Below, in pieces: positions 986-61,283 of a stretch of 64,000 nt of DNA (the first letter of the stretch is position 1; the number at the start of each line of letters is the position of its first letter). The translations under genes were made by a program, and so were the position numbers. Where the stretch lies: positions 9,112 through 73,111 of the forward strand of contig CAZHXI010000003.1 of the NCBI GenBank assembly GCA_964536515.1. The letters are read 5' to 3'. The notes under the pieces are model-generated. The model was not told the DNA's origin, did not search any database, and saw only the letters and a program-made list of their open reading frames with translations. This DNA comes from an uncultured Gammaproteobacteria bacterium (lineage in GTDB: Bacteria > Patescibacteriota > Patescibacteriia > CAYZDG01).

Positions 986-1017
986 AAAAGCCGCCCGATT
1001 ACGGACGGCTTCTGTTT
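986..1017 (-). terminator. Rho-independent terminator (GCCGCCCG-atta-CGGACGGC) flanked by T/A runs on both strands
   Basis: Hairpin just downstream of the stop of the 1017..1433 gene, followed on the minus strand by TTTTGATAT. Shares the AGCCGCCC...GGCGGCTTCTGT motif with the terminators at 42.6 and 43.1 kb. Confidence 0.55.
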
Positions 1018-1433
1018 CACCGTGGCTTTGGCTTCTTGCGCTTTCGGCGATTTCCCTTGGTCGACTTCTTCTTGGCGGCAACCTTACGGGGCGGCAGGCT
1101 CGCCAGCTGCTCCAGCAGATCTATAGCTGCATTTATTTCTGCCCGAACAGCTCGGTCCACCGTTGCAGAGCCAGAGCGGTACTGCTGGTACTTGCGCAGG
1201 CGCACGGTAGCCTCGGGCAAATCATTGATCTCCATTCGCGGTGCGAACTGGCAGACATTGATCAGCGCGCAGTGGATGCGGTTGAGCTCGCCACCGAGCG
1301 CCCCGGCTGCCTCGTCCACCCTCTTCTTGCCCCGCAGCTGTTTGCACAGCCTGGCCAGGATCTTGGCGTACGAACCAATGGCTTCCAGCGCATCGGATAC
1401 CCGCTGCTTGGGAGATGGCAATCCTCTACTCAA
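1017..1433 (-). CDS. Hypothetical protein (138 aa) with Lys/Arg-rich C-terminal tail
   Basis: Protein-like composition and the only ORF here followed by a terminator; no family recognised. Confidence 0.5.
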   Translation of the reverse strand: MSRGLPSPKQRVSDALEAIGSYAKILARLCKQLRGKKRVDEAAGALGGELNRIHCALINVCQFAPRMEINDLPEATVRLRKYQQYRSGSATVDRAVRAEINAAIDLLEQLASLPPRKVAAKKKSTKGNRRKRKKPKPR

Positions 1434-9651: not shown

Positions 9652-10419
9652 CTACTCCTTGGCGGCCTTAGCCTTTGCCTTCTTGGCGGGCTTAGCCGGC
9701 TCGTCCGCCGCTGCCGAAGCTGCCTGCTCCAGCGCCTCGCTGCTGCCGATGAAGTTGAAGTGCTCCAGCAGAATCTGGTTGGCGGCTGCGACGGCAGCTG
9801 CCGGGGCAATGGTGCCGTCGGTCTCTACGCTCAGAGTTACCTTCTCGTAGTTGGTGAACTGCTCCACGCGGACGTTCTCTACCTTCATGCCGACGGTTAC
9901 GACGGGCGAGAACAGGGCGTCGATGGCGAGCGTGCCGATCTCCAGCCGCTCCTTCTCGCGCACCTCGACCGGCAGGTAGCCGCGGCCGCGCTGCACCGTT
10001 ACCTCCATGGACAGGGTCGCCTTGGCGTCGGTCAGCGTGCAGATGACGTGGTCGGGGTTGGCAATGGTTACCTGGGCGTTCGCGGCGAAGTCGCCCGCGG
10101 TGACGACCGTTGCACCCTTCGCCTTCAGGGTCAGGGTTACCGGCTCATCGCTGAAGCAAGCCAGGCGAACCTTCTTCAGGTTCAGGATGATGTCGATGCT
10201 GTCCTCCTTGACGAAGGGGATGCTGGAGAACTCGTGGGATACGCCGTCGAACTTTACCGCGGTAATGGCAGCGCCGGGCAGGGACGACAGCATGACGCGA
10301 CGGAGCGCGTTGCCGAGCGTGGTGCCGTAGCCGGGGTAGCAGGGCTCGATGGTAACCGTGGCCTGCTTGGGGCCCAGCTCCTCAACGGCTAGCGTCTGGG
10401 GGAGCGGAATGGTGCTCAT
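9652..10419 (-). CDS. rpoA: DNA-directed RNA polymerase alpha subunit, N-terminal domain only (255 aa; no alpha-CTD; Ala/Lys-rich tail)
   Basis: RpoA NTD motifs (LGNALRRVMLSSLPGAAIT...). The protein ends ...AAADEPAKPAKKAKAKAAKE with no helix-hairpin-helix CTD. Confidence 0.9.
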   Translation of the reverse strand: MSTIPLPQTLAVEELGPKQATVTIEPCYPGYGTTLGNALRRVMLSSLPGAAITAVKFDGVSHEFSSIPFVKEDSIDIILNLKKVRLACFSDEPVTLTLKAKGATVVTAGDFAANAQVTIANPDHVICTLTDAKATLSMEVTVQRGRGYLPVEVREKERLEIGTLAIDALFSPVVTVGMKVENVRVEQFTNYEKVTLSVETDGTIAPAAAVAAANQILLEHFNFIGSSEALEQAASAAADEPAKPAKKAKAKAAKE

Positions 10420-10443: not shown

Positions 10444-11058
10444 TTACTTAGAGTAGAACTCGATGATGACCTGGGGGTTGACCACGCCCTCGCCGTCCTG
10501 CAGCTCGGGCAGAGCGGTAACCTTGCCAGAGGCAGCGGTTCCCTTGGCCTCCACCTGCTGCAGCCAGCGCGGCGTGTCGTGCTTCATGATTGCCTCCGAC
10601 CGTGCAGCCCACGTGCCGCGGTCTGCGACGGCGTTGCGCATGCTGATGGTCTGGCCTACCTCTACCAGGCTGCTGGGCATGGTTACCCGCTTGCCCTCTA
10701 CCAGCACGTCTCCGTGGCTCACCATCTGGCGGGCGCCCTGCCTGGTCGGCGACCACCCCAGGCGGTAGATGACGTTGTCTAGCCGGCGCTCCAGCAGCTC
10801 CACCAGCCCCTGGGCGCTATCGCCCTTGCGGCTCATGGCCTGCCTAACGGTATTGCTGAACTGCCGCTCCATAATGCCGTACAGCCGCTTAGCCTTCTGC
10901 TTCTCGCGCAGCTGCAGCCCGTACTGGCTCACCTTGCGGGGTCGGCCCTTGGGGCCGTGCTGCCCCGGCGGGTAGTCGCGCTTGAGCACGCTGACGCCCG
11001 GCAGCAGCACGCCTTCGCGGCGGGCAAGTCGGGTTCGTGGTCCTGTGTATCGTGCCAT
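10444..11058 (-). CDS. rpsD: 30S ribosomal protein S4
   Basis: MARYTGPRTRLARREG... S4. Confidence 0.95.
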   Translation of the reverse strand: MARYTGPRTRLARREGVLLPGVSVLKRDYPPGQHGPKGRPRKVSQYGLQLREKQKAKRLYGIMERQFSNTVRQAMSRKGDSAQGLVELLERRLDNVIYRLGWSPTRQGARQMVSHGDVLVEGKRVTMPSSLVEVGQTISMRNAVADRGTWAARSEAIMKHDTPRWLQQVEAKGTAASGKVTALPELQDGEGVVNPQVIIEFYSK

Positions 11059-12418: not shown

Positions 12419-14221
12419 TCAGGCCCAAATACCCTTAATTCGCCTCACCCCCTGGCTAACCGCCTCTTCCTTAGCAATTTTGAAGGTTCCCAGCTCAGAG
12501 GTATTGTCCACATGGGGGCCGCCACAGATTTCCTTCGAGTAGTCCCCTACCGTATAGACCTTGACCTTTTCGCCATACTTATGTCCAAAGAGTCCGATTG
12601 CCCCGGCAGCCTTAGCCTCCTCCACCGTCATCTCTTGGCTAGTTACCGGCAGCTTGCGAGAAATCTGCTCGTTTACGGCAGCCTCCACACGTGCAATTTC
12701 ATCATCAGACATCTTGCCGGTGTGGCTGAAGTCGAAACGGAGTCGCTCGGCGGTTAGGTTGCTGCCGCGCTGCTCTACGTGCGAGCCGAGGACATCACGC
12801 AGCGCGCGGTGGAGCAGGTGCGTGGCGGTATGGAACCGCTTGACCTCATCGGAGTGGTCGGCGAGGCCGCCCTTGAACTGGCCAGCGGTGGCGGTGCGAG
12901 ATAGCTCCTGGTGCCTGCCAAGCTCCGCTCGGAAGGCCTCTAGGTCAACCGTCATCCCGCGCTCAGATGCGAGCTCCTGCGTCAGCTCGATGGGGAAGCC
13001 GTAGGATTGGTACAGGTCGAACGCCTGCTCGCCGCTCATCCCCGAGCCGCCGGAAGCCAGCTTCTCGAACTGCCTCAGCCCCGTGGTGAGCGTAGCCGCA
13101 AACTTCGCCTCCTCCTCGGCCAGCGCGGTGAATACGGCCTCGCGCCGCTCGGCTAGGTCGGGGTAGACGTGGGCGAAGCGCTCCAGCACAGCCCGGGCGA
13201 CGTCCACGACGAAGGCTCCCCGGATGCCCAGGGTCCTGCCCGCTCGAATCGCCCGGCGGATGAGACGCCGCACGACGTATCCCTGCCCCACGTTGGAGGG
13301 CAGCACCCCACGGCGGTCTCCGATGATGAATGTGGCAGCCTTTATGTGGTCGGCTACAACCCTCAGCCAACGGGTAGAGGCTCCGTCGGTGCCGTAGCGG
13401 ACGCCGGAGAGGCGCTCGACCGCAGCCACGATCGGCTGCACCAGGTCGGTGCGGTAGGCGTCGCCGCCGGTGCGGGCGTAGTCCAACACCGCCACCGTCC
13501 GCTCCAGGCCCATGCCGGTATCCACATTCTTCTGCGCCAATGGCTCGTAAGCCCCAGATTCGGTCTTACGGTACTGCATGAACACATTGTTCCAAATCTC
13601 CACCCACTCAGCTGGGTTCGTCTGGGGGTTAGTGGCCTGAGGATCGCCGGTGCCAACGTAGTAGAAAATTTCTGTGTCTGGCCCGCACGGGCCGGTAGTA
13701 CCCGCAGGACCCCACCAGTTGTCCTCTCGGCCCAGGAATACAATCCTAGACTCGGGGACGCCCTGGCCACGCCACAGCGCAGCTGCCTCGTCATCCTGGC
13801 CTATGCCAGCAGCGGCATCGCCGATGAAGCAGGTAACGCACAGCTTGCCGGGCTCGATGCCCAGCCAGTCGGGAGAGGTCAGGAACTCCCACGACCACGC
13901 AATGGACTCCGCCTTGAAGTAGTCACCCAGGCTCCAGTTGCCAAGCATCTCGAACACCGTCAGGTGGGTCTGGTCCCCCACCTCGTCTATGTCGCCGGTC
14001 CGCACGCACGGCTGGCAGTCTGCTAGCCGTCGGCCGGAGGGGTGATCTTGCCCTAGCAGGTACGGCACCAGCGGGTGCATGCCCGCCGTGGTGAACAGCA
14101 CCGTGGGATCGTTCTCGGGAATGAGGGATGCCGGCGAGATGATGGCGTGGCCCTTAGACTTAAAGAAGTCTAGGAACTTCTGCCTCAGCACGTCTCCGTC
14201 GATGGGCTTATCCATAGACAT
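12419..14221 (-). CDS. alaS: Alanyl-tRNA synthetase, truncated form lacking the C-terminal C-Ala/DHHA1 domain (600 aa)
   Basis: Class II AlaRS catalytic core plus editing-domain motifs (HTATHLL, CGGPHV); ends right after the editing domain. Confidence 0.9.
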   Translation of the reverse strand: MSMDKPIDGDVLRQKFLDFFKSKGHAIISPASLIPENDPTVLFTTAGMHPLVPYLLGQDHPSGRRLADCQPCVRTGDIDEVGDQTHLTVFEMLGNWSLGDYFKAESIAWSWEFLTSPDWLGIEPGKLCVTCFIGDAAAGIGQDDEAAALWRGQGVPESRIVFLGREDNWWGPAGTTGPCGPDTEIFYYVGTGDPQATNPQTNPAEWVEIWNNVFMQYRKTESGAYEPLAQKNVDTGMGLERTVAVLDYARTGGDAYRTDLVQPIVAAVERLSGVRYGTDGASTRWLRVVADHIKAATFIIGDRRGVLPSNVGQGYVVRRLIRRAIRAGRTLGIRGAFVVDVARAVLERFAHVYPDLAERREAVFTALAEEEAKFAATLTTGLRQFEKLASGGSGMSGEQAFDLYQSYGFPIELTQELASERGMTVDLEAFRAELGRHQELSRTATAGQFKGGLADHSDEVKRFHTATHLLHRALRDVLGSHVEQRGSNLTAERLRFDFSHTGKMSDDEIARVEAAVNEQISRKLPVTSQEMTVEEAKAAGAIGLFGHKYGEKVKVYTVGDYSKEICGGPHVDNTSELGTFKIAKEEAVSQGVRRIKGIWA

Positions 14222-15254: not shown

Positions 15255-16328
15255 CTACCGTATCACGCCCCCGCCGAGAACCTCGCGCCCCCGGTACAGC
15301 ACGGCATGCTGCCCGGGGGTTACCGCGCGTTCGGGCTGGTCCAGCGTTACCACCCAATGTCCCCTGACGCTAGCTACCGTCCCCCGCCTGGGCTTCTGCT
15401 GGTGGTAGCGGACCTCCACCGTGCAGCGCAGCGGCTCGGCTGGCTCTACGCCGCTGACCCAGTGCATATCCTCCAGCTGAAAGCGCCGCGAGAAGAGACG
15501 TGGATCGTGAGGGTCATTCGTAACGCGCACCACGTTCCTGCGCACGTCGGTAGCTACAACGTACCAGGGGCCGTCCGGCAGCCCCAGTCCATCCCGCTGG
15601 CCGACCGTGTAGAGCCACGCGCCCCGGTGCTTGCCCAGCTCACGTCCGCGGAGGTCTACGATCTTCCCCTGCCGTTCACGAATGTGGTGGCTGAGGAAGT
15701 CGAAGAGCTTAACCTCTCCCACGAAGCAGATGCCCTGGCTATCTGGCCTGGTCGCATTGGGCAAACGGACCTTCTTGGCCAAAGCTCTAACCTGGGCCTT
15801 CGTCATTCCACCGAGCGGGAACAGCGACCGCGCCAAAGTCTGCTGGCTGCTGCGGTACAGGAAGTAGCTCTGGTCTTTGCTCGGATCCGTCCCGCGCAGT
15901 AGACGGTACCTTCGGTGTCCCCGTGTTCCCGTATTCAGAACTCCGGCGTAGTGCCCGGTAGCCACGTAGTCGGCACCAACCTGCACGGCTCGGCGGAGGA
16001 ATGTGCCGAACTTTATCTGCTGGTTGCAGCGCACGTCGGGGTTCGGCGTACGGCCCCGCCGGTACTCGGCAAAGAACTCACGCAGCACCTGCCGGCGGTA
16101 CTCTGCGGCAAAGTTCCAGGTGTACAGGGGAACCTTAAGGTGCTCCGCGGCAGCCTTAGCTGCGTCATAGTCTGACTCCCAGCGGCAGTCGGAGCCCGGC
16201 AGCTGCGCCGGATCTACGTTCACCATGAACACGCCGAACACGTCGTAGCCCTGCCGCTTGAGCAGGTACGCTGCGACTGCCGAATCCACGCCGCCCGATA
16301 GGCCGACGGCCACCTTCCCCCTGCCCAT
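15255..16328 (-). CDS. mnmA: tRNA-specific 2-thiouridylase MnmA (start MGRGKVAVGLSGGVDS at 16328; track ORF to 16388)
   Basis: SGGVDS PP-loop, catalytic-Cys region and MnmA C-terminal barrel. The ATG lies 2 nt after the upstream gene's TAG. Confidence 0.9.
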   Translation of the reverse strand: MGRGKVAVGLSGGVDSAVAAYLLKRQGYDVFGVFMVNVDPAQLPGSDCRWESDYDAAKAAAEHLKVPLYTWNFAAEYRRQVLREFFAEYRRGRTPNPDVRCNQQIKFGTFLRRAVQVGADYVATGHYAGVLNTGTRGHRRYRLLRGTDPSKDQSYFLYRSSQQTLARSLFPLGGMTKAQVRALAKKVRLPNATRPDSQGICFVGEVKLFDFLSHHIRERQGKIVDLRGRELGKHRGAWLYTVGQRDGLGLPDGPWYVVATDVRRNVVRVTNDPHDPRLFSRRFQLEDMHWVSGVEPAEPLRCTVEVRYHQQKPRRGTVASVRGHWVVTLDQPERAVTPGQHAVLYRGREVLGGGVIR

Positions 16329-27697: not shown

Positions 27698-28819
27698 TTA
27701 CTCTACCAGACGGTAGCGTCCGCCGGGAAGCTTGGCGAACCGCTTGCGGTTCATCAGCGCCAGGGCAACGGTGGAAGACTTCACCACCCGCTGCTTCAGC
27801 ACGCGCTCCACAATCTCGTCCTTGGTAAGGGGCTCGGCTGCATCGCGGAGCACCCGCTCGATTACGTCGGCGACCACGCCGGGCTGGTAGCCCCACTCGC
27901 GCAGTGCGTAGGTGCCGCGGCCGACCAGCACGTACTTGGAGTCGAGGATCAGCTCGTTGTGCACCGTGGCCGGGTAGGCGGTCTTGTGGTCGAAGCCCGT
28001 CTCGTTGATAGCCTTGGCGATGTCGGTGAAGTGCATGGGCTTGCCGTACTTCTTGAGCACCAGGTAGATCTTGTCGCTCATGCGGCGCGGGTTGACCGTC
28101 TTCCAGTCCGCCAGGCCCCACTCGCCGTACGGGTTCACCCGCAGCTTGTTGCTGGCGCGCATGTACGACTCGACCGCGTCATCGGTGAGGGAGTCGCTGT
28201 TCTCGCTGTAGTGCGGGTGGGCCTTAACGGCAGCCAGGACGTCATCCATAGGCTTCGGCTCGCCCAGCTTGTCGATGACGGTGTGGAGCGACAGCAGCGT
28301 CTTCTCGATGAACTCCCACGGGGTGGCTGCGAGGCGCCAGGAGGGGTGCAGCTCGTCGCGATACTTCAGCCGCTCGACCTCGTCCACCAGCTTATCGATG
28401 AGCATGAGGGCGGCTGCGCGCTGCTCGCGGACCGAAGACTGCTGGCCGAGCACGCGGTCCAGGCCCATGTCCTCGGGAATGAGGCCGCCGTGCTGCTCGA
28501 GCACGCGGCGAGACACGGCGCCCAGCGGGGCGACCAGGCCCTCGCGCTCGTCAGCCTGGCGCAGCTTGCGCAGAGCCGAAGCCTCGATCTGGCGGACACG
28601 CTCACGGGTAATCTTGTACTGCTGGCCAATGGCCTCCAGCGTCTGCGGCTCCGGGTTCTTGCCCAAGCCGAAGCGTAGGTGAATCACCTCACGCTCGCGT
28701 GCGCTCAGCCCCTGGCCAAGCTTGATGATGATCTCGTACGGATTCAGGTCCTTAGCTAGCGACTCGTGCTGGCTAGAGAGCACCCGATCGAGGATGGAAT
28801 TTTCCTTGCTGTCGGCCAT
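27698..28819 (-). CDS. Sigma-70 region-4-like domain fused to three HARE-HTH-like repeats (about 373 aa from ATG 28819; track ORF TTG at 28867)
   Basis: N-terminal [51 protein letters not shown] matches the sigma70 region 4 consensus. Three repeats starting (K/E)P(M/L) and ending ...[11 protein letters not shown] / ...[10 protein letters not shown] / ...GGRYRLVE resemble the HARE-HTH of RNAP delta subunit. Confidence 0.7.
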
Positions 28820-28927
28820 ATATTTATTGCTATTGCGCACAGTACCACAGTATGTTTTAAGCGTCAAGCAAGCCTGTGCACAGGCAGCCCCGGCGGTAGC
28901 CGGGGCTAGCAGAACCGCTGCAGTCCC

Positions 28928-36788: not shown

Positions 36789-37106
36789 CTACTCGCTGCG
36801 ACGCCTGGGCGTGGCCTTCGCCTTCTTGGTCGCCAGCTGCCGAGCCAGCTTCTCGATTACCTCGTTCGCCGCGCCGATGATGGTGGCGGCGCTGGCTACG
36901 CCACGGATGCTGGGGCCGGTAACTGGCGTTAGGTTAATCTCCAGCCGGTACACCTCGCCCCGCTTGTGGTGCCTATCCTTGCTTATATCCACCTGCGCCT
37001 TATCTAGCGACCGCGAGATGCGACGCAGCGCCAGCAGCTTACGCTCAACCGCCGCGTGCGCCGCCGCCGGCAGGGGGATGTTAGAGAGGTAGAACTGGAT
37101 GTTCAT
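36789..37106 (-). CDS. hpf: Ribosome hibernation promoting factor / RaiA (S30AE family; start MNIQFY at 37106; track ORF to 37154)
   Basis: ...KRGEVYRLEINLTPVTGPSIRGVASAATIIGAANEVIEKL... typical HPF fold. Confidence 0.85.
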   Translation of the reverse strand: MNIQFYLSNIPLPAAAHAAVERKLLALRRISRSLDKAQVDISKDRHHKRGEVYRLEINLTPVTGPSIRGVASAATIIGAANEVIEKLARQLATKKAKATPRRRSE

Positions 37107-37231
37107 AGCGTTGGTTTGGTTAGTACCTTGAGCATACAGCAATTCATGGATCAACGGGCAGCTGTGGATTCATAGCCCAGCACGTCTGCTATATTGATAA
37201 ACTATCTCCGTAATAATCCACAGGCCGATGC

Positions 37232-39040: not shown

Positions 39041-39625
39041 ATGGCAGACGCAAGAACCGGCTCGGTATTCACCGACGCCATTACCGACCTGCTGCTGCCT
39101 GCCCTCGGCATCCGTCTCTTCATGAAACGGAGCGAGGGTGGGCACAGCGATCCGACCGCGAGCAGCCAAGACGAATTCGCCCTACTGCACGCGCTCGAGA
39201 CGCTGGAGGGCGAGGACGCGAAGATGAAGGAGTTCATCCTCGGGTACCTAAGGTACCTCAAGTCTGAGAACAAGTCTCGCATAATTCCCCGACTCCGCGA
39301 GACCATAGCCCGGGCCGGGGGAAAAGATGGAGCGAAAGCTGAAGAGGTACAGAAGCTACTGGTCTCCATCTTTAAGGAAGAATTCGCGAAACTGGCTGAT
39401 GCCGCTGGGAACCAAAACACCACGGCAGCATACAGAAAGATCAGCGATGATTTGGACATAATTCTTACGCAGAGGCTGATGGCAACGCTGAGGGATCGGT
39501 GGGGTCAGTTTGCCGACTTCTTTGCCGACCTCGAGCAGCAGCACGTTGAGGCTGCAGATGATCTGGATGAGTTCTTCAGGAGCAGACGCGAGCGGAGACG
39601 TAACAGAAACCAAGGAAGGAGCTGA
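39041..39625 (+). CDS. Hypothetical acidic cytoplasmic protein (194 aa)
   Basis: GGGAGG RBS; start 1 nt after the upstream stop, so translationally coupled. Confidence 0.7.
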   Translation: MADARTGSVFTDAITDLLLPALGIRLFMKRSEGGHSDPTASSQDEFALLHALETLEGEDAKMKEFILGYLRYLKSENKSRIIPRLRETIARAGGKDGAKAEEVQKLLVSIFKEEFAKLADAAGNQNTTAAYRKISDDLDIILTQRLMATLRDRWGQFADFFADLEQQHVEAADDLDEFFRSRRERRRNRNQGRS

Positions 39626-49145: not shown

Positions 49146-50264
49146 CTACCTGAACCCCAGCCGGCTGCGGAGGGCGACGCTCTGGGCTATGCCCAGGGCG
49201 ATGAGCAGGGTTAGCAGCGAGCTGCCTCCGGCGCTCACCAGGGGCAGGGTTACGCCGGTGAGCGGCAGCAGCCCCAGAGCGCCGCCGAGGTTGATGATCG
49301 CCTGGCACCCAATCCAGCCCGCGAGGCCCAGGCACACAAGGGTACCGAAGTCGTCTTCGCTGCTGCGGGCAATGATGATGAGCCTAGCGAGCAGCAGGCC
49401 TAGCAGCGCCAGGATTGCGAGGGCGCCCACCAGCCCCAGCTCCTCGGCCAAGCCGGAGAAAATGAAGTCGGTATGCTGCTCGGGGAGGAAGTTGAGCTGG
49501 CTCTGCGAGCCCAGGCCAATCCCCCGCCCCAGCACCTGGCCCGAGCCGACGGCCACAATGGACTGGCGGACGTTGTACCCGCTGCCCAGCGGGTCGGCGC
49601 CTGGGTTGAGGAAGTTGAGCACGCGGTCGTGCTGGTAGGGCGAGAGCAGCGCGAACCAAGCGAACACAGCTAGCGCAACACCCCCGCCGATGAGCAGTAG
49701 CCACTGCTTCCAGCTGGCACGGTAGAAGAACAGCAGCACCAGCCAGATAGCCACGAGCACGAGCGCCGAGCCAAGGTCGGGCTGCAGCAGCACCAGGCCG
49801 GCCAGGCCGGCTAGCCATAGGCCGCTGGCCACGAACGGCTTCCACCGACCGGCCTCGCCGATGCGAGCGCTGAAGTAGCGCGAGAGGATGAGCAGCAGCG
49901 CCAGCTTTGCGAACTCCACCGGCTGGAGGGTAGCGCCGAACAGGTTGAGCCATGCCTGGCTGCCGCGAATGGTGCGGCCCGCGACCAGCACCACCACCAG
50001 CAGCAGCGCCACGCCTATGTACATCAGCTTGCTGTACGAGCGGAAGGCTCGGTAGTCGGCCAAGCTAATGGCCAGCATCAAGGCTACGCCAACAACCGCC
50101 ACGGCTAGCTGCTTGCGCAGCAGGCCAGCGTTGGCGGGGTCTGCCAGCGTTGCGCTGTACAGGGCCACGAGCCCGAAGCAGACCAGCAGCGCGGCCGCAC
50201 CCAGCATGAACCAGTCCAGGCTGGCGAACCGCGACCCGAGCGACGAGCGTGCCAACGACCTCAT
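49146..50264 (-). CDS. SEDS-family peptidoglycan glycosyltransferase FtsW/RodA
   Basis: Ten-TM SEDS layout; conserved ...[16 protein letters not shown]...[11 protein letters not shown]... Confidence 0.85.
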
Positions 50265-51085
50265 TCAGGCAGCAGGACGTTGGAGCGGTCGAAGGGGTCG
50301 GTAACCAGCTGAACCTCAACCTGCGCCGACGGTGAAATTGGGTGGTACCAGGTAACCGCGCTCGGGCGCTCCTCCCCCGCCGCCAGGTTGCCAATCTCCA
50401 GCCTGGCCACGGCCACCACCGACCCGCCCTCTCGCGCCACAGCCACAGCAGCTACAGACCGGTAGCCGACCTGGTCGCCATTGACGGCCGTGAAGGTCGC
50501 GCGGCTGGGCTGCCCGCTCTCCAGCTGCAGCGAAACATCCTTAGCTGCCAGCTGCAGCGCCGGAATGGGGTCGTCCTCGCTGTCTCGTACCCAGCGGAGG
50601 CCGACGATTGCCAGCTCGGCATCTGCCGCCTCGCCGGCAGCTACGCCGGCGGCGTACCGGGTCTCGCCCGGCATCAGCCACATCCAGCCGGTGGCGACCA
50701 CGTCTCCGTCGGGCAGCCTGAACTCGTAGGTAACCCCCGTGGCTACCCTACCGTCGTTGGGGTTCGTAACGGTAGCAAGCAGCTGGGTAGAGCCGGGCAG
50801 CAGCACAGCAGAGACTTCGCCCACCTCCAATGGATCCGGCTTGGGGGCAACGTAAGGCTGCATCGCCGTAACCTCCCGGTAGATACGGTCTACCAGGCCG
50901 GGGTCTTGAATGATCGGCAACGCTCGCCAGGCCGCCCAGCCGTACAGCAGCACAGAAGCTGCGACGAGTACGTATATGGAGGCACGTCGAATTGTGGAAA
51001 AGTGGGTCAGCACCCAGTAGTTCGCCCGAACCAGCAGCGAGGTGCTGGCTAGCGGCTCGAAGTCATTCTTGGGAACGGGAAGCAT
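50261..51085 (-). CDS. Hypothetical membrane-anchored protein (about 274 aa from ATG 51085; track ORF GTG at 51121), ATGA-coupled to ftsW/rodA
   Basis: Single N-terminal TM helix plus a beta-rich extracytoplasmic domain. Confidence 0.55.
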   Translation of the reverse strand: MLPVPKNDFEPLASTSLLVRANYWVLTHFSTIRRASIYVLVAASVLLYGWAAWRALPIIQDPGLVDRIYREVTAMQPYVAPKPDPLEVGEVSAVLLPGSTQLLATVTNPNDGRVATGVTYEFRLPDGDVVATGWMWLMPGETRYAAGVAAGEAADAELAIVGLRWVRDSEDDPIPALQLAAKDVSLQLESGQPSRATFTAVNGDQVGYRSVAAVAVAREGGSVVAVARLEIGNLAAGEERPSAVTWYHPISPSAQVEVQLVTDPFDRSNVLLPE

Positions 51086-51095
51086 AAGCTCAGAA

Positions 51096-51165
51096 TACAG
51101 AACACCAGAACACCTGTACACGGGAACGAAGGTGTTCGAGTGTTCCGGTGTTCCGACTGCTGCTA
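51096..51165. promoter_or_regulatory. Palindromic array of GAACACC/GGTGTTC heptads around TGTACA (copy A)
   Basis: GAACACCAGAACACC-TGTACA-...GGTGTTCGAGTGTTCCGGTGTTCC. Shares about 30 bp with copy B at 55.6 kb. Confidence 0.5.
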
Positions 51166-51175
51166 TACTAATCCC

Positions 51176-51517
51176 ATGTTCGAGACGTCACGAGATATCC
51201 TCAACTGGGCAATCGCCGTCAGCGTGGTCGCCGTGGCCATTTCGATGGTGTGGGCCATGGCCTACGTCATCGGCATGCTGCGGACGGTGAACGAGCTCAA
51301 CCGTCGCATCCGCGGCGCCGTGGAGGGCTTCACCGTCGTCATGGCGCACCTGCAGGATAAAATCCAGTCTACCGCCGGGTACCTACCCATGATCGTTCAG
51401 GCAGTAACCAGGCTGGTAGACTACTTCATGAAGCAGCGAGCCGAACGCCGAGCCGCTGCCGACGATTCAGATTTTGAACAGAGTGCACCGCCGCGTCCGA
51501 GAAAAACCAAAAAGTAA
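51176..51517 (+). CDS. Hypothetical small membrane protein (about 113 aa from MFETSRDIL)
   Basis: ORF followed by a clean terminator; one TM helix. Confidence 0.45.
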   Translation: MFETSRDILNWAIAVSVVAVAISMVWAMAYVIGMLRTVNELNRRIRGAVEGFTVVMAHLQDKIQSTAGYLPMIVQAVTRLVDYFMKQRAERRAAADDSDFEQSAPPRPRKTKK

Positions 51518-55589: not shown

Positions 55590-55660
55590 ACGACAACACT
55601 AGAACACCGCAGCGCCCGTGTTCCGGTGTACAGGTGTTCCGGTGTTCTGTATCCTTTACC
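55590..55660. promoter_or_regulatory. GTGTTC/GAACAC heptad array with TGTACA core (copy B), upstream of the 55662 gene
   Basis: ...GAACACCGCAGCGCCCGTGTTCCGG-TGTACA-GGTGTTCCGGTGTTCTGTAT. Confidence 0.5.
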
Positions 55661-55661
55661 T

Positions 55662-56828
55662 ATGCCGACCCCGAAACGCCCATCAATCCGTAAGCGAGCC
55701 CTAGATGCCGACCCGGTGCCGGAGACGCACGTAGCTGCAACCAGAACCATTAGCCGGGCCTACGGCCGGGCGGTGGCGGGCTTCACGCTCGTCGCCGTGC
55801 TGCTCGCCGGCGTAATCCTCACCGTTACCGGCAGCCGCGCCACGGTTACCGTGGTTGCCAAGGTTAACGAGCGGTCGGTGCCGTTCATCTTCTCCGTTGC
55901 CTCGGGCCAGTCCAGCAGCTCGGACAGCCTCCCCGGACGCCTGCTGGAGTTGGCCACTACTACCAGCGAGACCGTAGCTGTAACCCCCGAGCCGCAGGCA
56001 GCAGACCCCAGCGCCAAGGCTGGCGGCGAGGTAACAATTTCCAACTCATCCGGCGTCCCCCAGCAGCTCGTTGCGACCACGCGGCTGCAGACTGCTGACG
56101 GCAAGCTGTTTCGACTGCAGCGTGCGGTTACGGTTCCCGCGAACGGGTCGGTCACCGGCTCGGTGCTGGCGGATGAGGCGGGCGCCCAGTACGCCATCGG
56201 CCCCAGCAGCTTCACCATTCCCGGCCTCAACCCAAGCAGGCAGCAGCAGGTTACAGCAGCCAGCAGCCAGGCTTTCACCCAGAAGGCAGCGGGCAGAGGG
56301 CTGACCGAGGCGCAGCTGGCGGAGGCACGTAGCAGAGCGCTAGCAGCAATCACCGCCAAGCTGAGCCCGCTGCTCAAGGCCTCGCTATTCGAGAACGAAT
56401 CCCTCACGGACGAAGCTGTTACGACCACGGCCCTAGAGCTGGCCACGGATGCCGAGGCAGGTGACGAGGTAACATCGGTAACCTTTGCCGGCACCGTTCG
56501 GGTGAGCGCTACCCTATTCAACGAGCAGGAGCTGCGGCGACGCGCGGCGGCAGCAGCCGGCGCGGGAGCCAACGCGGGCACCGTTCGCTACGCGGTGCAG
56601 CGTGCTGCATCTGGATCTGAATCCATTGCCACCGTCGCGGGCACCGTAAACGTACGGAGCGCCGACGTCTCTGTGCAGGCAACAGACCTAACCGGCAGGA
56701 CCAAGGCTGAGGCACAGGTGTACCTAGAGCTGCTGCCCGGCGTGGAATCTGCCGAGGTTAAGCTGCGGCCACGATGGTTCACACGTCTGCCGCAGGACGC
56801 CAGCCGGATTACGATTCGAATTGAATAG
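55662..56828 (+). CDS. Hypothetical membrane-anchored protein (about 388 aa from MPTPKRPS; track ORF GTG at 55626)
   Basis: N-terminal TM helix plus a Ser/Thr/Ala-rich extracytoplasmic domain. Confidence 0.55.
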   Translation: MPTPKRPSIRKRALDADPVPETHVAATRTISRAYGRAVAGFTLVAVLLAGVILTVTGSRATVTVVAKVNERSVPFIFSVASGQSSSSDSLPGRLLELATTTSETVAVTPEPQAADPSAKAGGEVTISNSSGVPQQLVATTRLQTADGKLFRLQRAVTVPANGSVTGSVLADEAGAQYAIGPSSFTIPGLNPSRQQQVTAASSQAFTQKAAGRGLTEAQLAEARSRALAAITAKLSPLLKASLFENESLTDEAVTTTALELATDAEAGDEVTSVTFAGTVRVSATLFNEQELRRRAAAAAGAGANAGTVRYAVQRAASGSESIATVAGTVNVRSADVSVQATDLTGRTKAEAQVYLELLPGVESAEVKLRPRWFTRLPQDASRITIRIE

Positions 56829-60059: not shown

Positions 60060-61283
60060 ATGGAAAAACTGCAGCGACGGCTGCGTCTGTTCATAGTTCT
60101 CGCCCTGCTCACCGGAGCGGCGGCGGCTCTGTTCGTTGGCACCGCCAGCGCCCAGACGAGCACCGCCGAGACCGTAACCATTGGGGATATGGGGCTAACG
60201 GCTACCCCGCCGGCGGGTGGCTTCGCCCGGTGGTGGGACAGCTTCACGGACGGCGTAAGGCTGCAGTTTACCTTCAATGACCAGAGGAAAGCCGAGCTGC
60301 AGCTGCAGCGGGCCGCCAAGCTCCTCGCCCGACTAGAGCAGGCCGGGGGCGACGCCCAGGCAGAGCAGCTGCTGGCCAAGTACCGGGCCGCGGTGAACAA
60401 GATCGAAGCGGAAGCCGAGCTGAGCGACACGTTCCTGGGTAGGCTCCTGGCCCAGCAGAGCTTCATTACCCAAATCGAGGGCTCGGGCCGCTTCAGCTTG
60501 GGCGACCAGCTAGCCGTTACGCGCAACCAGAACTGGGAGAAGCTGAACGCAACCTTCGGCGATGCCGGAGCGCTTAGCCAGCGCCTAGCCAACCTACCTA
60601 CCGCCTCGCCCGAGGCAATTGCCAGGCGTGCGGCCATGCTGGAGGAGTGGCGGCAGCGCCTCTCGCCCGAGCAGCAGGCTAAGGCCGAGGCTGCCATAGG
60701 TGCACTGGTAGAGAAGCTCCGCAGCCTATCCCCCGCCCAGGCAGCGGCCATTGCCGAACGTCTGCACGCCTTCACCGCCAGCCAAGAAGCCCAGGCGTAC
60801 ATCGGGGCGCTCCTGGAGAAGGTGCAGCCTAGCCTGGAGGGGCTGGCTAAGCAGCTGGCGCAGCCCCGGCAGCCCAACCAAGACCCGACGCCGGCCAATG
60901 CCGCTGCCGGCATCCTGGGCAACGTTGCGGTGCCCCCCATGTCAGCCGGGGAGATTGCCGCCCGTCGCGCCGAGCTTGCCGAGGCGACCACCAAGGATGA
61001 GCTGCTGGCCCTACGCCAGCGCTGGTACGGCAACCCGGTGCTCTACCGGCAGCTATCGCAGTACCAGCGCACGCTGCTGGACCAGCTCAACGCCAAGCTG
61101 GTCAAAGCCCTGGGCAGGGGCTCGCAGCCGGTAACCCCCGCTGCTCCGACGGATCCGGACGCCGGCGTAACTCCCCTCCCCACCCAGCAGCTGACCCCCG
61201 AGCAGCAGGCAATGGGCCAGGCCTTCATCCAGATGCAGGGCATAGACTCCAGCGACCTACCGCCGCCCACGGTCTCTTACTAG
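60060..61283 (+). CDS. Secreted hypothetical alpha-helical protein (407 aa)
   Basis: Signal peptide; Ala/Gln/Leu-rich helical repeats. An extended -10-like TGGTATACT lies about 40 nt upstream. Confidence 0.65.
   Translation: MEKLQRRLRLFIVLALLTGAAAALFVGTASAQTSTAETVTIGDMGLTATPPAGGFARWWDSFTDGVRLQFTFNDQRKAELQLQRAAKLLARLEQAGGDAQAEQLLAKYRAAVNKIEAEAELSDTFLGRLLAQQSFITQIEGSGRFSLGDQLAVTRNQNWEKLNATFGDAGALSQRLANLPTASPEAIARRAAMLEEWRQRLSPEQQAKAEAAIGALVEKLRSLSPAQAAAIAERLHAFTASQEAQAYIGALLEKVQPSLEGLAKQLAQPRQPNQDPTPANAAAGILGNVAVPPMSAGEIAARRAELAEATTKDELLALRQRWYGNPVLYRQLSQYQRTLLDQLNAKLVKALGRGSQPVTPAAPTDPDAGVTPLPTQQLTPEQQAMGQAFIQMQGIDSSDLPPPTVSY

Follow-up and report, generated by a model that had tools for sequence, protein, structure and literature searches.

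An RNA polymerase alpha subunit without its C-terminal domain in Patescibacteria, and a basic tail as its possible minimal replacement

The C-terminal domain (CTD) of RNA polymerase's alpha subunit is a hub at the centre of transcription control in bacteria: it recognizes UP elements, and class I activators and many other factors dock on it. We analysed the rpoA gene encoded in a stretch of 64,000 nucleotides (hereafter the window) of contig CAZHXI010000003.1, which comes from an uncultured member of the Patescibacteria, also called the candidate phyla radiation (CPR). The protein consists of a complete alpha N-terminal domain (NTD) followed by a short tail. Neither the gene nor the rest of the 64-kb window encodes the (HhH)2 CTD of approximately 65 residues. 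We conclude that this is a genuine Patescibacteria rpoA, typical of its lineage, where the alpha-CTD was lost, and on balance we favour the view that the tail may be a minimal replacement for it.

The NTD, i.e. the domain that assembles alpha2-beta-beta', is complete and conserved. The Pfam search of the protein revealed two families only: PF01193 at residues 25-221 (E = 2.9e-21), interrupted by the PF01000 insert at residues 55-171 (nucleotides 9907-10257, E = 3.4e-32). The NCBIfam equivalog model for rpoA, TIGR02027, scored 250.3 bits (cut-off 227.8) with a match covering positions 2-231 of its 298. Several sub-models of PRK05182 scored under their cut-off, and the NCBIfam models were reached only to approximately position 231-249. 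The alignments to solved structures span residues 7-223 for the alpha subunit of M. smegmatis (E = 7.5e-59) and 11-229 for that of E. coli, with 44-47% identity to solved alpha subunits in the structural alignments. The aligned region is the entire alpha NTD and nothing beyond. The AlphaFold2 model, made with 120 homologues, has a mean predicted local distance difference test score (pLDDT) of 92.8, exceeding 90 at residues ~10-230, and its best matches in Foldseek are bacterial alpha NTDs (E of ~1e-28 to 1e-26, template modelling score of ~0.8). A pair of arginines (R40 R41) is invariant among the homologues and aligns with what we take to be R44 R45 of E. coli RpoA. The models for the archaeal subunit D remained below their cut-offs on this protein (NF001988 with 30.7 bits for a cut-off of 153, NF011548 with 18.4 for a cut-off of 194), and its sequence is clearly bacterial.

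The CTD family PF03118 (RNA_pol_A_CTD) is absent from the protein even at E ≤ 1. We also searched all six frames of the window with two hidden Markov models (HMMs) of the alpha-CTD. One was built from the domains of E. coli, B. subtilis, Thermus and M. tuberculosis (the E. coli alpha sequence used proved identical to PDB chains), and the other from fifteen Patescibacteria CTDs taken from the loci that we retrieved. The best matches had E-values of 1.8-10, i.e. at the level of noise. As a control, the CTD was detected in 45 of the 45 loci known to carry it, at E ≤ 1.3e-12 except in a frameshifted rpoA from Chloroflexia (L053), whose CTD was picked up in two frames. Hence, a frameshifted CTD in the window would have shown. 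Moreover, the ATG of rplQ (9643) lies 8 nt past the TAG of rpoA (9652-9654), so there is no room for a CTD and no frameshift could restore one. A preliminary description of the window had reported the absence of the alpha-CTD, which is borne out by Pfam, by the coverage of TIGR02027 and by the structural alignment to the NTD only. It had named two observations that would speak against this absence, and both were checked with negative results: a separate open reading frame (ORF) encoding the CTD is ruled out in the window by the E-values given above, and a frameshift or read-through restoring the domain by the 8-nt spacing together with the six-frame search.

We then compared the protein with the rpoA of relatives, as had been suggested in the preliminary description. 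The best 120 of at least 7,788 homologues are also devoid of a CTD: all have 229-283 residues and match only PF01000 and PF01193. Those with a name are from the Patescibacteria / Parcubacteria group, including Candidatus Veblenbacteria and Kerfeldbacteria, and the best match at the species level is a Candidatus Veblenbacteria (61%). To sample more broadly, we used one genome per GTDB species, which resulted in 80 rpoA loci with flanks of +/-3 kb. The CTD is present in 45 of them and missing from every frame within +/-3 kb in the other 35. The CTD-less loci that have a name (Veblen-, Uhr-, Magasanik-, Falkow-, Kuenen-, Moranii- and Parcubacteria) are all from Patescibacteria. Yet, there are also CTD-bearing Patescibacteria, e.g. 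Candidatus Moranbacteria CG_4_9_14_3_um_filter_42_9, and the curated Pfam model PF03118 identified the domain in five Patescibacteria alpha subunits (33.6-51.1 bits for a cut-off of 23.8), while it was absent in five CTD-less ones. Since Veblenbacteria and Moranbacteria are both in the NCBI 'Parcubacteria group', the trait is polymorphic in this group. When 1.84 billion representatives (at 50% identity) were searched exhaustively with HMMER, the CTD was lacking in 64 of the best 150 proteins, and some of these 64 are visibly out-of-frame junk. Judging from these sequences, the loss of the CTD is a widespread and polymorphic trait of Patescibacteria, which is neither peculiar to this genome nor universal in the clade. 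The window rpoA has the profile of the CTD-less Patescibacteria genes: a length within 230-290 residues, the NTD only, flanks free of CTD and nearest relatives in Patescibacteria.

Hundreds of related sequences share the NTD-only architecture as a fixed feature, and it evolved on at least two occasions in Patescibacteria. In a neighbour-joining tree, two CTD-less proteins from Moraniibacteriota (L015 and L051) cluster with four CTD-bearing ones (L025, L038, L039 and L043) in 50 out of 50 bootstraps, which implies at least two independent losses. The remainder of this crude tree has one large CTD-less cluster that includes the window protein. Its monophyly was recovered in only 1 of 50 bootstraps, and we therefore limit the claim to 'at least two losses' and dropped the hypothesis of a single ancestral loss. 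Since sister Patescibacteria keep the CTD, the CTD-less state is a secondary loss within Bacteria.

These comparisons also inform on two ways in which a CTD might exist in spite of the results above. The truncation could be an artefact of sequencing or assembly (a frameshift, a premature stop or a chimera) of a gene that is truly full length. Broken rpoA genes do exist in public assemblies (L053 and L081-L083), and nothing else favours an artefact. It is at odds with the start of rplQ just after the stop codon and with the lack of CTD-like sequence in any frame. Furthermore, a 100% identical protein (P0001) is present on two NCBI contigs, and the same architecture is seen in homologues of independent origin (ENA, JGI and Logan data) at 77-89% identity. 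The preliminary description regarded an assembly artefact as unlikely; given the spacing, the six-frame search and the homologues, we find it hardly credible. The alternative is a gene fission, where the alpha-CTD persists as the product of another gene in the genome and either works in trans or docks on the polymerase. The absence of the CTD was established for the 64 kb of the window, a limit that counts against our interpretation and in favour of a fission. A search for contigs that would extend the window returned only Logan contigs of 1-3 kb. Short proteins matching only PF03118 (51-121 residues) are also numerous in the databases, some of them on contigs of 240-725 kb. We searched public proteins with a profile of 15 Patescibacteria CTDs and retrieved 138 of these short proteins. 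The three cases on long contigs that we inspected (59, 100 and 109 residues, contigs of 244-725 kb) each turned out to be a piece of a frameshift-fragmented rpoA at its normal locus between rpsD and rplQ, and two of these assemblies also have broken genes next to it. Most of the remaining ones are on contigs smaller than 5 kb or are labelled partial. No true stand-alone CTD was found among the three cases inspected, which are hence not evidence for gene fission. The CTD is also missing from all frames in the window and in the +/-3 kb around rpoA of the 35 CTD-less species. We thus regard a CTD supplied in trans as very improbable. The loci L053, L081, L082 and L083, where frameshifts split rpoA into NTD and CTD pieces in public long-contig assemblies, are of interest on their own. 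Such genes populate the databases with apparent 'stand-alone alpha-CTD' proteins and are a trap for the inference of gene fission.

We now turn to the tail, defined as everything past residue 225 of the window protein, which ends 30 residues after the NTD. Tails of at least 12 residues are found in 116 of the 120 homologues (median of 39), and 103 of these 116 (89%) have at least five lysines or arginines (K/R) within 8 residues. The cluster is preceded by a linker with a median length of 27 residues and a net charge of -5, and the median distance between the end of the cluster and the C-terminus is 5 residues. In 35 of the 116 tails (30%) there is an RGRP-type AT-hook core, typically in the form KKRGRPKK. 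The Pfam family AT_hook, which matches 24 of the 120 homologues at E ≤ 1, is the sole recurrent family not related to the polymerase. We compared these tails with the interdomain linkers of 44 CTD-bearing alpha subunits (15 from Patescibacteria and 29 from other phyla). The latter are acidic or neutral on the whole, with net charges between -13 and +1, and only one of them has a K/R cluster (Fisher exact test, P = 4e-26; 1e-8 when using species representatives). The possibility that the tail is merely the old interdomain linker was accepted for its acidic part, which looks like a retained linker, and rejected for the basic patch, which occupies the former position of the CTD. Among the species representatives, which include 34 CTD-less alpha subunits, the patch is present in 20 and the hook in 7 of these 20. 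The G+C content of the loci is 0.32-0.55 when the tail has an AT-hook and 0.47-0.59 when there is no tail, a comparison that is confounded by phylogeny.

The window protein ends with ...ADEPAKPAKKAKAKAAKE, directly before the stop codon (...AADEPAKPAKKAKAKAAKE in the translation). Its tail has an acidic linker with a net charge of -4 and six lysines in the last 15 residues. Its closest relatives provide some context. In the subclade P0001-P0006, the K/R positions of the motif KPA[KR]K.[KR].K..KE are kept while the linker varies, and relatives at 70-76% identity (P0008 and P0009) have a KRGRPKK AT-hook in place of the window patch. We interpret the tail of the window protein as a degenerate or diluted version of the patch of its homologues. 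Lysine makes up 4.0% and arginine 7.0% of the 66 predicted proteins of the window, and the host has 63% G+C. The product of rpoA is the only one of the 66 with at least six lysines in the last 15 residues (binomial P = 1.6e-5). Hence, the enrichment of the tail in lysine runs counter to the composition of this Arg-preferring genome.

We propose that the tail works as follows. Based on work with E. coli and B. subtilis, a polymerase without the CTD would assemble and carry out sigma-directed basal transcription, and could not use the recognition of UP elements by the alpha-CTD or the activators that dock on this domain. The acidic and flexible linker (15 residues here, a median of ~27 in relatives) would tether the short C-terminal Lys/Arg cluster, which in ~30% of the close relatives is a canonical AT-hook, and allow it to touch the DNA upstream of the -35 element. 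The tail would thereby supply the sequence-non-specific or A/T-preferring contact with upstream DNA that is normally given by the alpha-CTD. In a host with this G+C content, the hook would have decayed to an (A/P)-K repeat binding DNA non-specifically. Such a role of the tail, as a minimal substitute for the contact of the alpha-CTD with upstream DNA, is suggested by its sequence and by analogy, and we deem it plausible if somewhat short of probable. More tentatively, a peptide on a tether, either an AT-hook or a poly-lysine, may have repeatedly taken the place of the folded alpha-CTD across much of Patescibacteria and would act as a minimal reader of UP elements or upstream DNA. The preliminary description had concluded that there would be no activation dependent on UP elements or on the alpha-CTD. 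One part of this stands: without the alpha-CTD, classical class I activation, known from work in E. coli, should be lacking, which is consistent with the report that CPR have no CRP/FNR-type activators (PMC12531629). The loss of UP-element-type contact is not established, since the basic patch or AT-hook is enriched in CTD-less alpha subunits and could keep a contact with the minor groove of upstream DNA.

The main alternative to a substitute is that the CTD was lost in genome streamlining and that the tail is a functionless low-complexity remnant, in which case the polymerase would rely on sigma alone and alpha would make no contact with upstream DNA. Several observations go in this direction and thus weigh against the role that we propose. 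The patch is present in only 20 of the 34 CTD-less representatives and is therefore dispensable in some lineages: 8 end right after the NTD (232-237 residues, '...LKDLTYSE'), and in another 6 the tail is purely acidic or neutral. Even among the close homologues, 13 of 116 lack the basic cluster. The tail is predicted to be disordered. In the window protein the patch is weak: no stretch of 8 residues has more than 4 K/R, a permutation test showed no significant clustering of them (p = 0.26), the GRP core is missing, and Pfam AT_hook does not match P0001, where the whole RGRP core is absent. Basic C-termini are also not rare in the window, since 9 of the 66 predicted proteins (14%) have at least six K/R in their last 15 residues. 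Finally, the last two codons, AAG GAG, double as the likely ribosome-binding site of rplQ, and the terminal bias for Lys and Glu could therefore be partly translational. On the other hand, a remnant does not easily account for a basic cluster in 89% of the close homologues when only 2% of the CTD-bearing linkers have one, for a frequency of the RGRP core that is far above chance for a 4-residue motif in ~40 residues, for the conservation of charged positions while the linker drifts, or for the retention of lysine in a genome with such composition. We consider a functionless remnant rather unlikely, even if it is the strongest competitor of a substitute.

Another alternative, which is compatible with a substitute, is that the functions of the alpha-CTD (contact with upstream DNA and regulatory input) were taken over by another protein associated with the polymerase. 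The window has a candidate, a protein that the preliminary description considered to fit the absence of the CTD. It has 389 residues and joins a sigma-70 region 4 of the -35 type (PF04545, E = 2e-16) to a HARE-HTH domain (PF05066, E = 2.8e-13). We take the latter to be a domain typical of the delta subunit of the Gram-positive RNA polymerase. This is a large and uniform family, with at least 6,941 homologues and full-length members of ~363-429 residues. The homologues with a name are all from Patescibacteria (Kerfeld-, Komeili- and Parcubacteria) in a list of matches that is biased to relatives of the query, and these lineages include some with CTD-less alpha subunits. The sources call them 'sigma factor-like HTH DNA-binding protein' or 'RNA polymerase delta subunit', and we found no characterization of the family. 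The gene shows no genomic linkage to rpoA, from which it is separated by 17 kb among unrelated neighbours, and we regard the takeover by this protein or a similar one as improbable. Directly downstream of its gene lies a pair of adjoining genes. One encodes a TrwB/VirD4-like type IV coupling protein (24273-26042, minus strand; PF10412, E = 3.8e-11), which has a treble-clef zinc finger (PF23477) at its C-terminus, and the other a protein of 529 residues without match in Pfam (26046-27635, minus strand).

Table 1. Features of the rpoA locus and of the sigma-like protein in the window.
Feature	Position	Strand	Basis or remark
rpoA, RNA polymerase alpha subunit, 255 aa	9652..10419	-	ATG start; stop TAG 9652-9654 included
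Alpha NTD (assembly/dimerization), residues 1-225	9745..10419	-	Pfam, AlphaFold2, Foldseek
Linker part of the tail, residues 226-240, SSEALEQAASAAADE	9700..9744	-	Net acidic; pLDDT drops from 84 to 60
C-terminal Lys/Ala/Pro-rich basic patch, residues 241-255, PAKPAKKAKAKAAKE	9655..9699	-	pLDDT 50-60, predicted disordered
AAGGAG, last two codons of rpoA (Lys-Glu)	9655..9660	-	Read from the sequence
rplQ, ribosomal protein L17	9275..9643	-	PF01196, E = 7.8e-30
rpsD, ribosomal protein S4, directly upstream of rpoA	10444..11058	-	PF00163 and PF01479
Sigma-like protein, 389 aa; sigma-70 region 4 at residues 53-104, HARE-HTH at 266-325	27698-28867	-	Pfam

The main features are listed in Table 1. The ORFs and their Pfam matches place rpoA at its conserved position in the cluster infA-rpsM-rpsK-rpsD-rpoA-rplQ-rplM-rpsI. 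This order, together with the Pfam matches for S4 and L17, corroborates the earlier statement that the gene is intact within a conserved cluster. The AAGGAG hexamer lies 11 nt upstream of the ATG of rplQ; it is Shine-Dalgarno-like and is the likely ribosome-binding site of this gene.

The loss of the CTD as such is already in the literature and is ordinary for the lineage. The alpha NTD is enough for assembly and basal transcription, while the use of UP elements and the contact with activators require the CTD (PMC8321222). The same work, from 2021, reports CTD-less alpha subunits in the insect endosymbionts Hodgkinia and Tremblaya and in the chloroplast rpoA of Euglena, and states in a single sentence, without analysis, that the loss 'is also present in Parcubacteria' (PMC8321222). 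The article that it cites for the latter (Nelson & Stegen 2015) does not contain 'polymerase', 'alpha' or 'rpoA' in its main text. Beyond PMC8321222, our search of the literature on an AT-hook or basic tail of alpha, or on the alpha-CTD in Patescibacteria, found nothing, and the polymerase is not treated in a 2024 perspective on Patescibacteria. In PMC12641261, transcription start-site data cover a single CPR species, Nanosynbacter lyticus. What appears to be undescribed is that the trait is polymorphic, that the CTD was lost repeatedly and that a tail usually stands in its place.

The comparison with known systems helps to place the window protein. It shares with the canonical RpoA (TIGR02027/PRK05182; 329 residues in E. 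coli) an orthologous NTD, the RR motif and the position between rpsD and rplQ, but lacks the whole alpha-CTD (PF03118), i.e. the module that contacts UP elements and activators. It resembles the CTD-less alpha subunits of Parcubacteria, Hodgkinia, Tremblaya and the Euglena plastid in being an NTD-only protein of a reduced genome, and is a further member of the Parcubacteria-group case. It differs from these reports in that the loss is polymorphic (some Moranbacteria keep the CTD) and usually accompanied by a basic patch or AT-hook. Archaeal RpoD and eukaryotic Rpb3 also have the PF01193 and PF01000 fold without a C-terminal DNA-binding domain, but the window protein is bacterial in sequence and its loss of the CTD is secondary. 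Lys/Ala/Pro-rich tails akin to histone H1 are known in high-G+C bacteria, e.g. the PAKKA repeats of the mycobacterial HupB/Hlp. The resemblance of PAKPAKKAKAKAAKE to these tails is in composition only, and the window tail has just 15 residues in this part. As for the AT-hook (PF02178; HMGA, WhiB7), the relatives of the window protein have K-K-R-G-R-P-K-K on a flexible tether of RNA polymerase, but the window tail lacks the G-R-P core, and the binding of alpha tails to DNA is only predicted. In structures with WhiB7, the AT-hook is reportedly positioned just upstream of the -35 element. WhiB7 thereby offers a precedent for the contact that we propose: its C-terminal AT-hook occupies the minor groove at an AT-rich motif within the complex of the RNA polymerase holoenzyme with the promoter, and the WhiB DNA-binding loop was placed just upstream of the -35 element (PMC10243135).

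Other features of the window were observed along the way. Small proteins with strongly basic K/R ends are encoded at 1017-1433 (minus), 36789-37154 (minus), 39041-39625 (plus) and 51140-51517 (plus), with ends such as ...KKKSTKGNRRKRKKPKPR, and the S30AE/HPF-like protein of the window ends with ...ATKKAKATPRRRSE. The ORF for alanyl-tRNA synthetase (12419-14221, minus) has 600 residues and ends right past the CGGPH motif of the editing site. The E. coli enzyme has ~875 residues. The C-terminal domain thus appears to be missing, which would make it a further case of a lost domain in this genome. Units of GAACAC / GTGTTC form palindromic arrays with 8-nt phasing at 51082-51152 and 55595-55665, and also at 15915-15936. 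The element GAACACNNGAACAC has 10 matches with at most one mismatch when 0.14 are expected. One array is between the divergent ORFs 50261-51121 and 51140-51517, and just downstream of dnaE there is another. Over 71 nt, the two long copies show 76% complementarity, and the 'VYRCSGVLY' starts of three mechanically called ORFs are the translated element. These arrays may be an operator or a terminator. Two adjacent genes (20511-22187 and 22309-24177, both minus) encode paralogous secreted proteins of 558 and 622 residues, which share internal repeats (77-84 nt in the DNA, 68-75% identity) and similar C-terminal modules. ARAGORN called a tRNA-Gly(GCC) of 96 nt at 61056-61151 (minus), inside and antisense to the ORF 60060-61283; judging from its length and position, the call would be a false positive or a tRNA with an intron. 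The Rfam scan of the window gave no family above the gathering threshold.

That a major bacterial radiation repeatedly dispenses with the alpha-CTD shows that this hub of transcription control is not universal, and its loss fits the very small repertoires of regulators of Patescibacteria episymbionts. Annotation pipelines label CTD-less proteins plain 'RNA polymerase subunit alpha', even if some equivalog models are below their cut-off. If the proposed replacement is correct, these bacteria would have kept the stimulation of promoters by upstream DNA and given up regulation mediated by the alpha-CTD, and the AT-hook tail would be the equivalent, in a bacterial core polymerase, of the AT-hooks of eukaryotic HMGA and of WhiB7. 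A tail that contacts upstream DNA would define the minimal requirement for such contact at promoters, and its ~10 residues on a flexible tether would be a testable module for engineering and for reading CPR promoters. This would be relevant for the development of genetic tools for Patescibacteria, whose transcription machinery is essentially unstudied.

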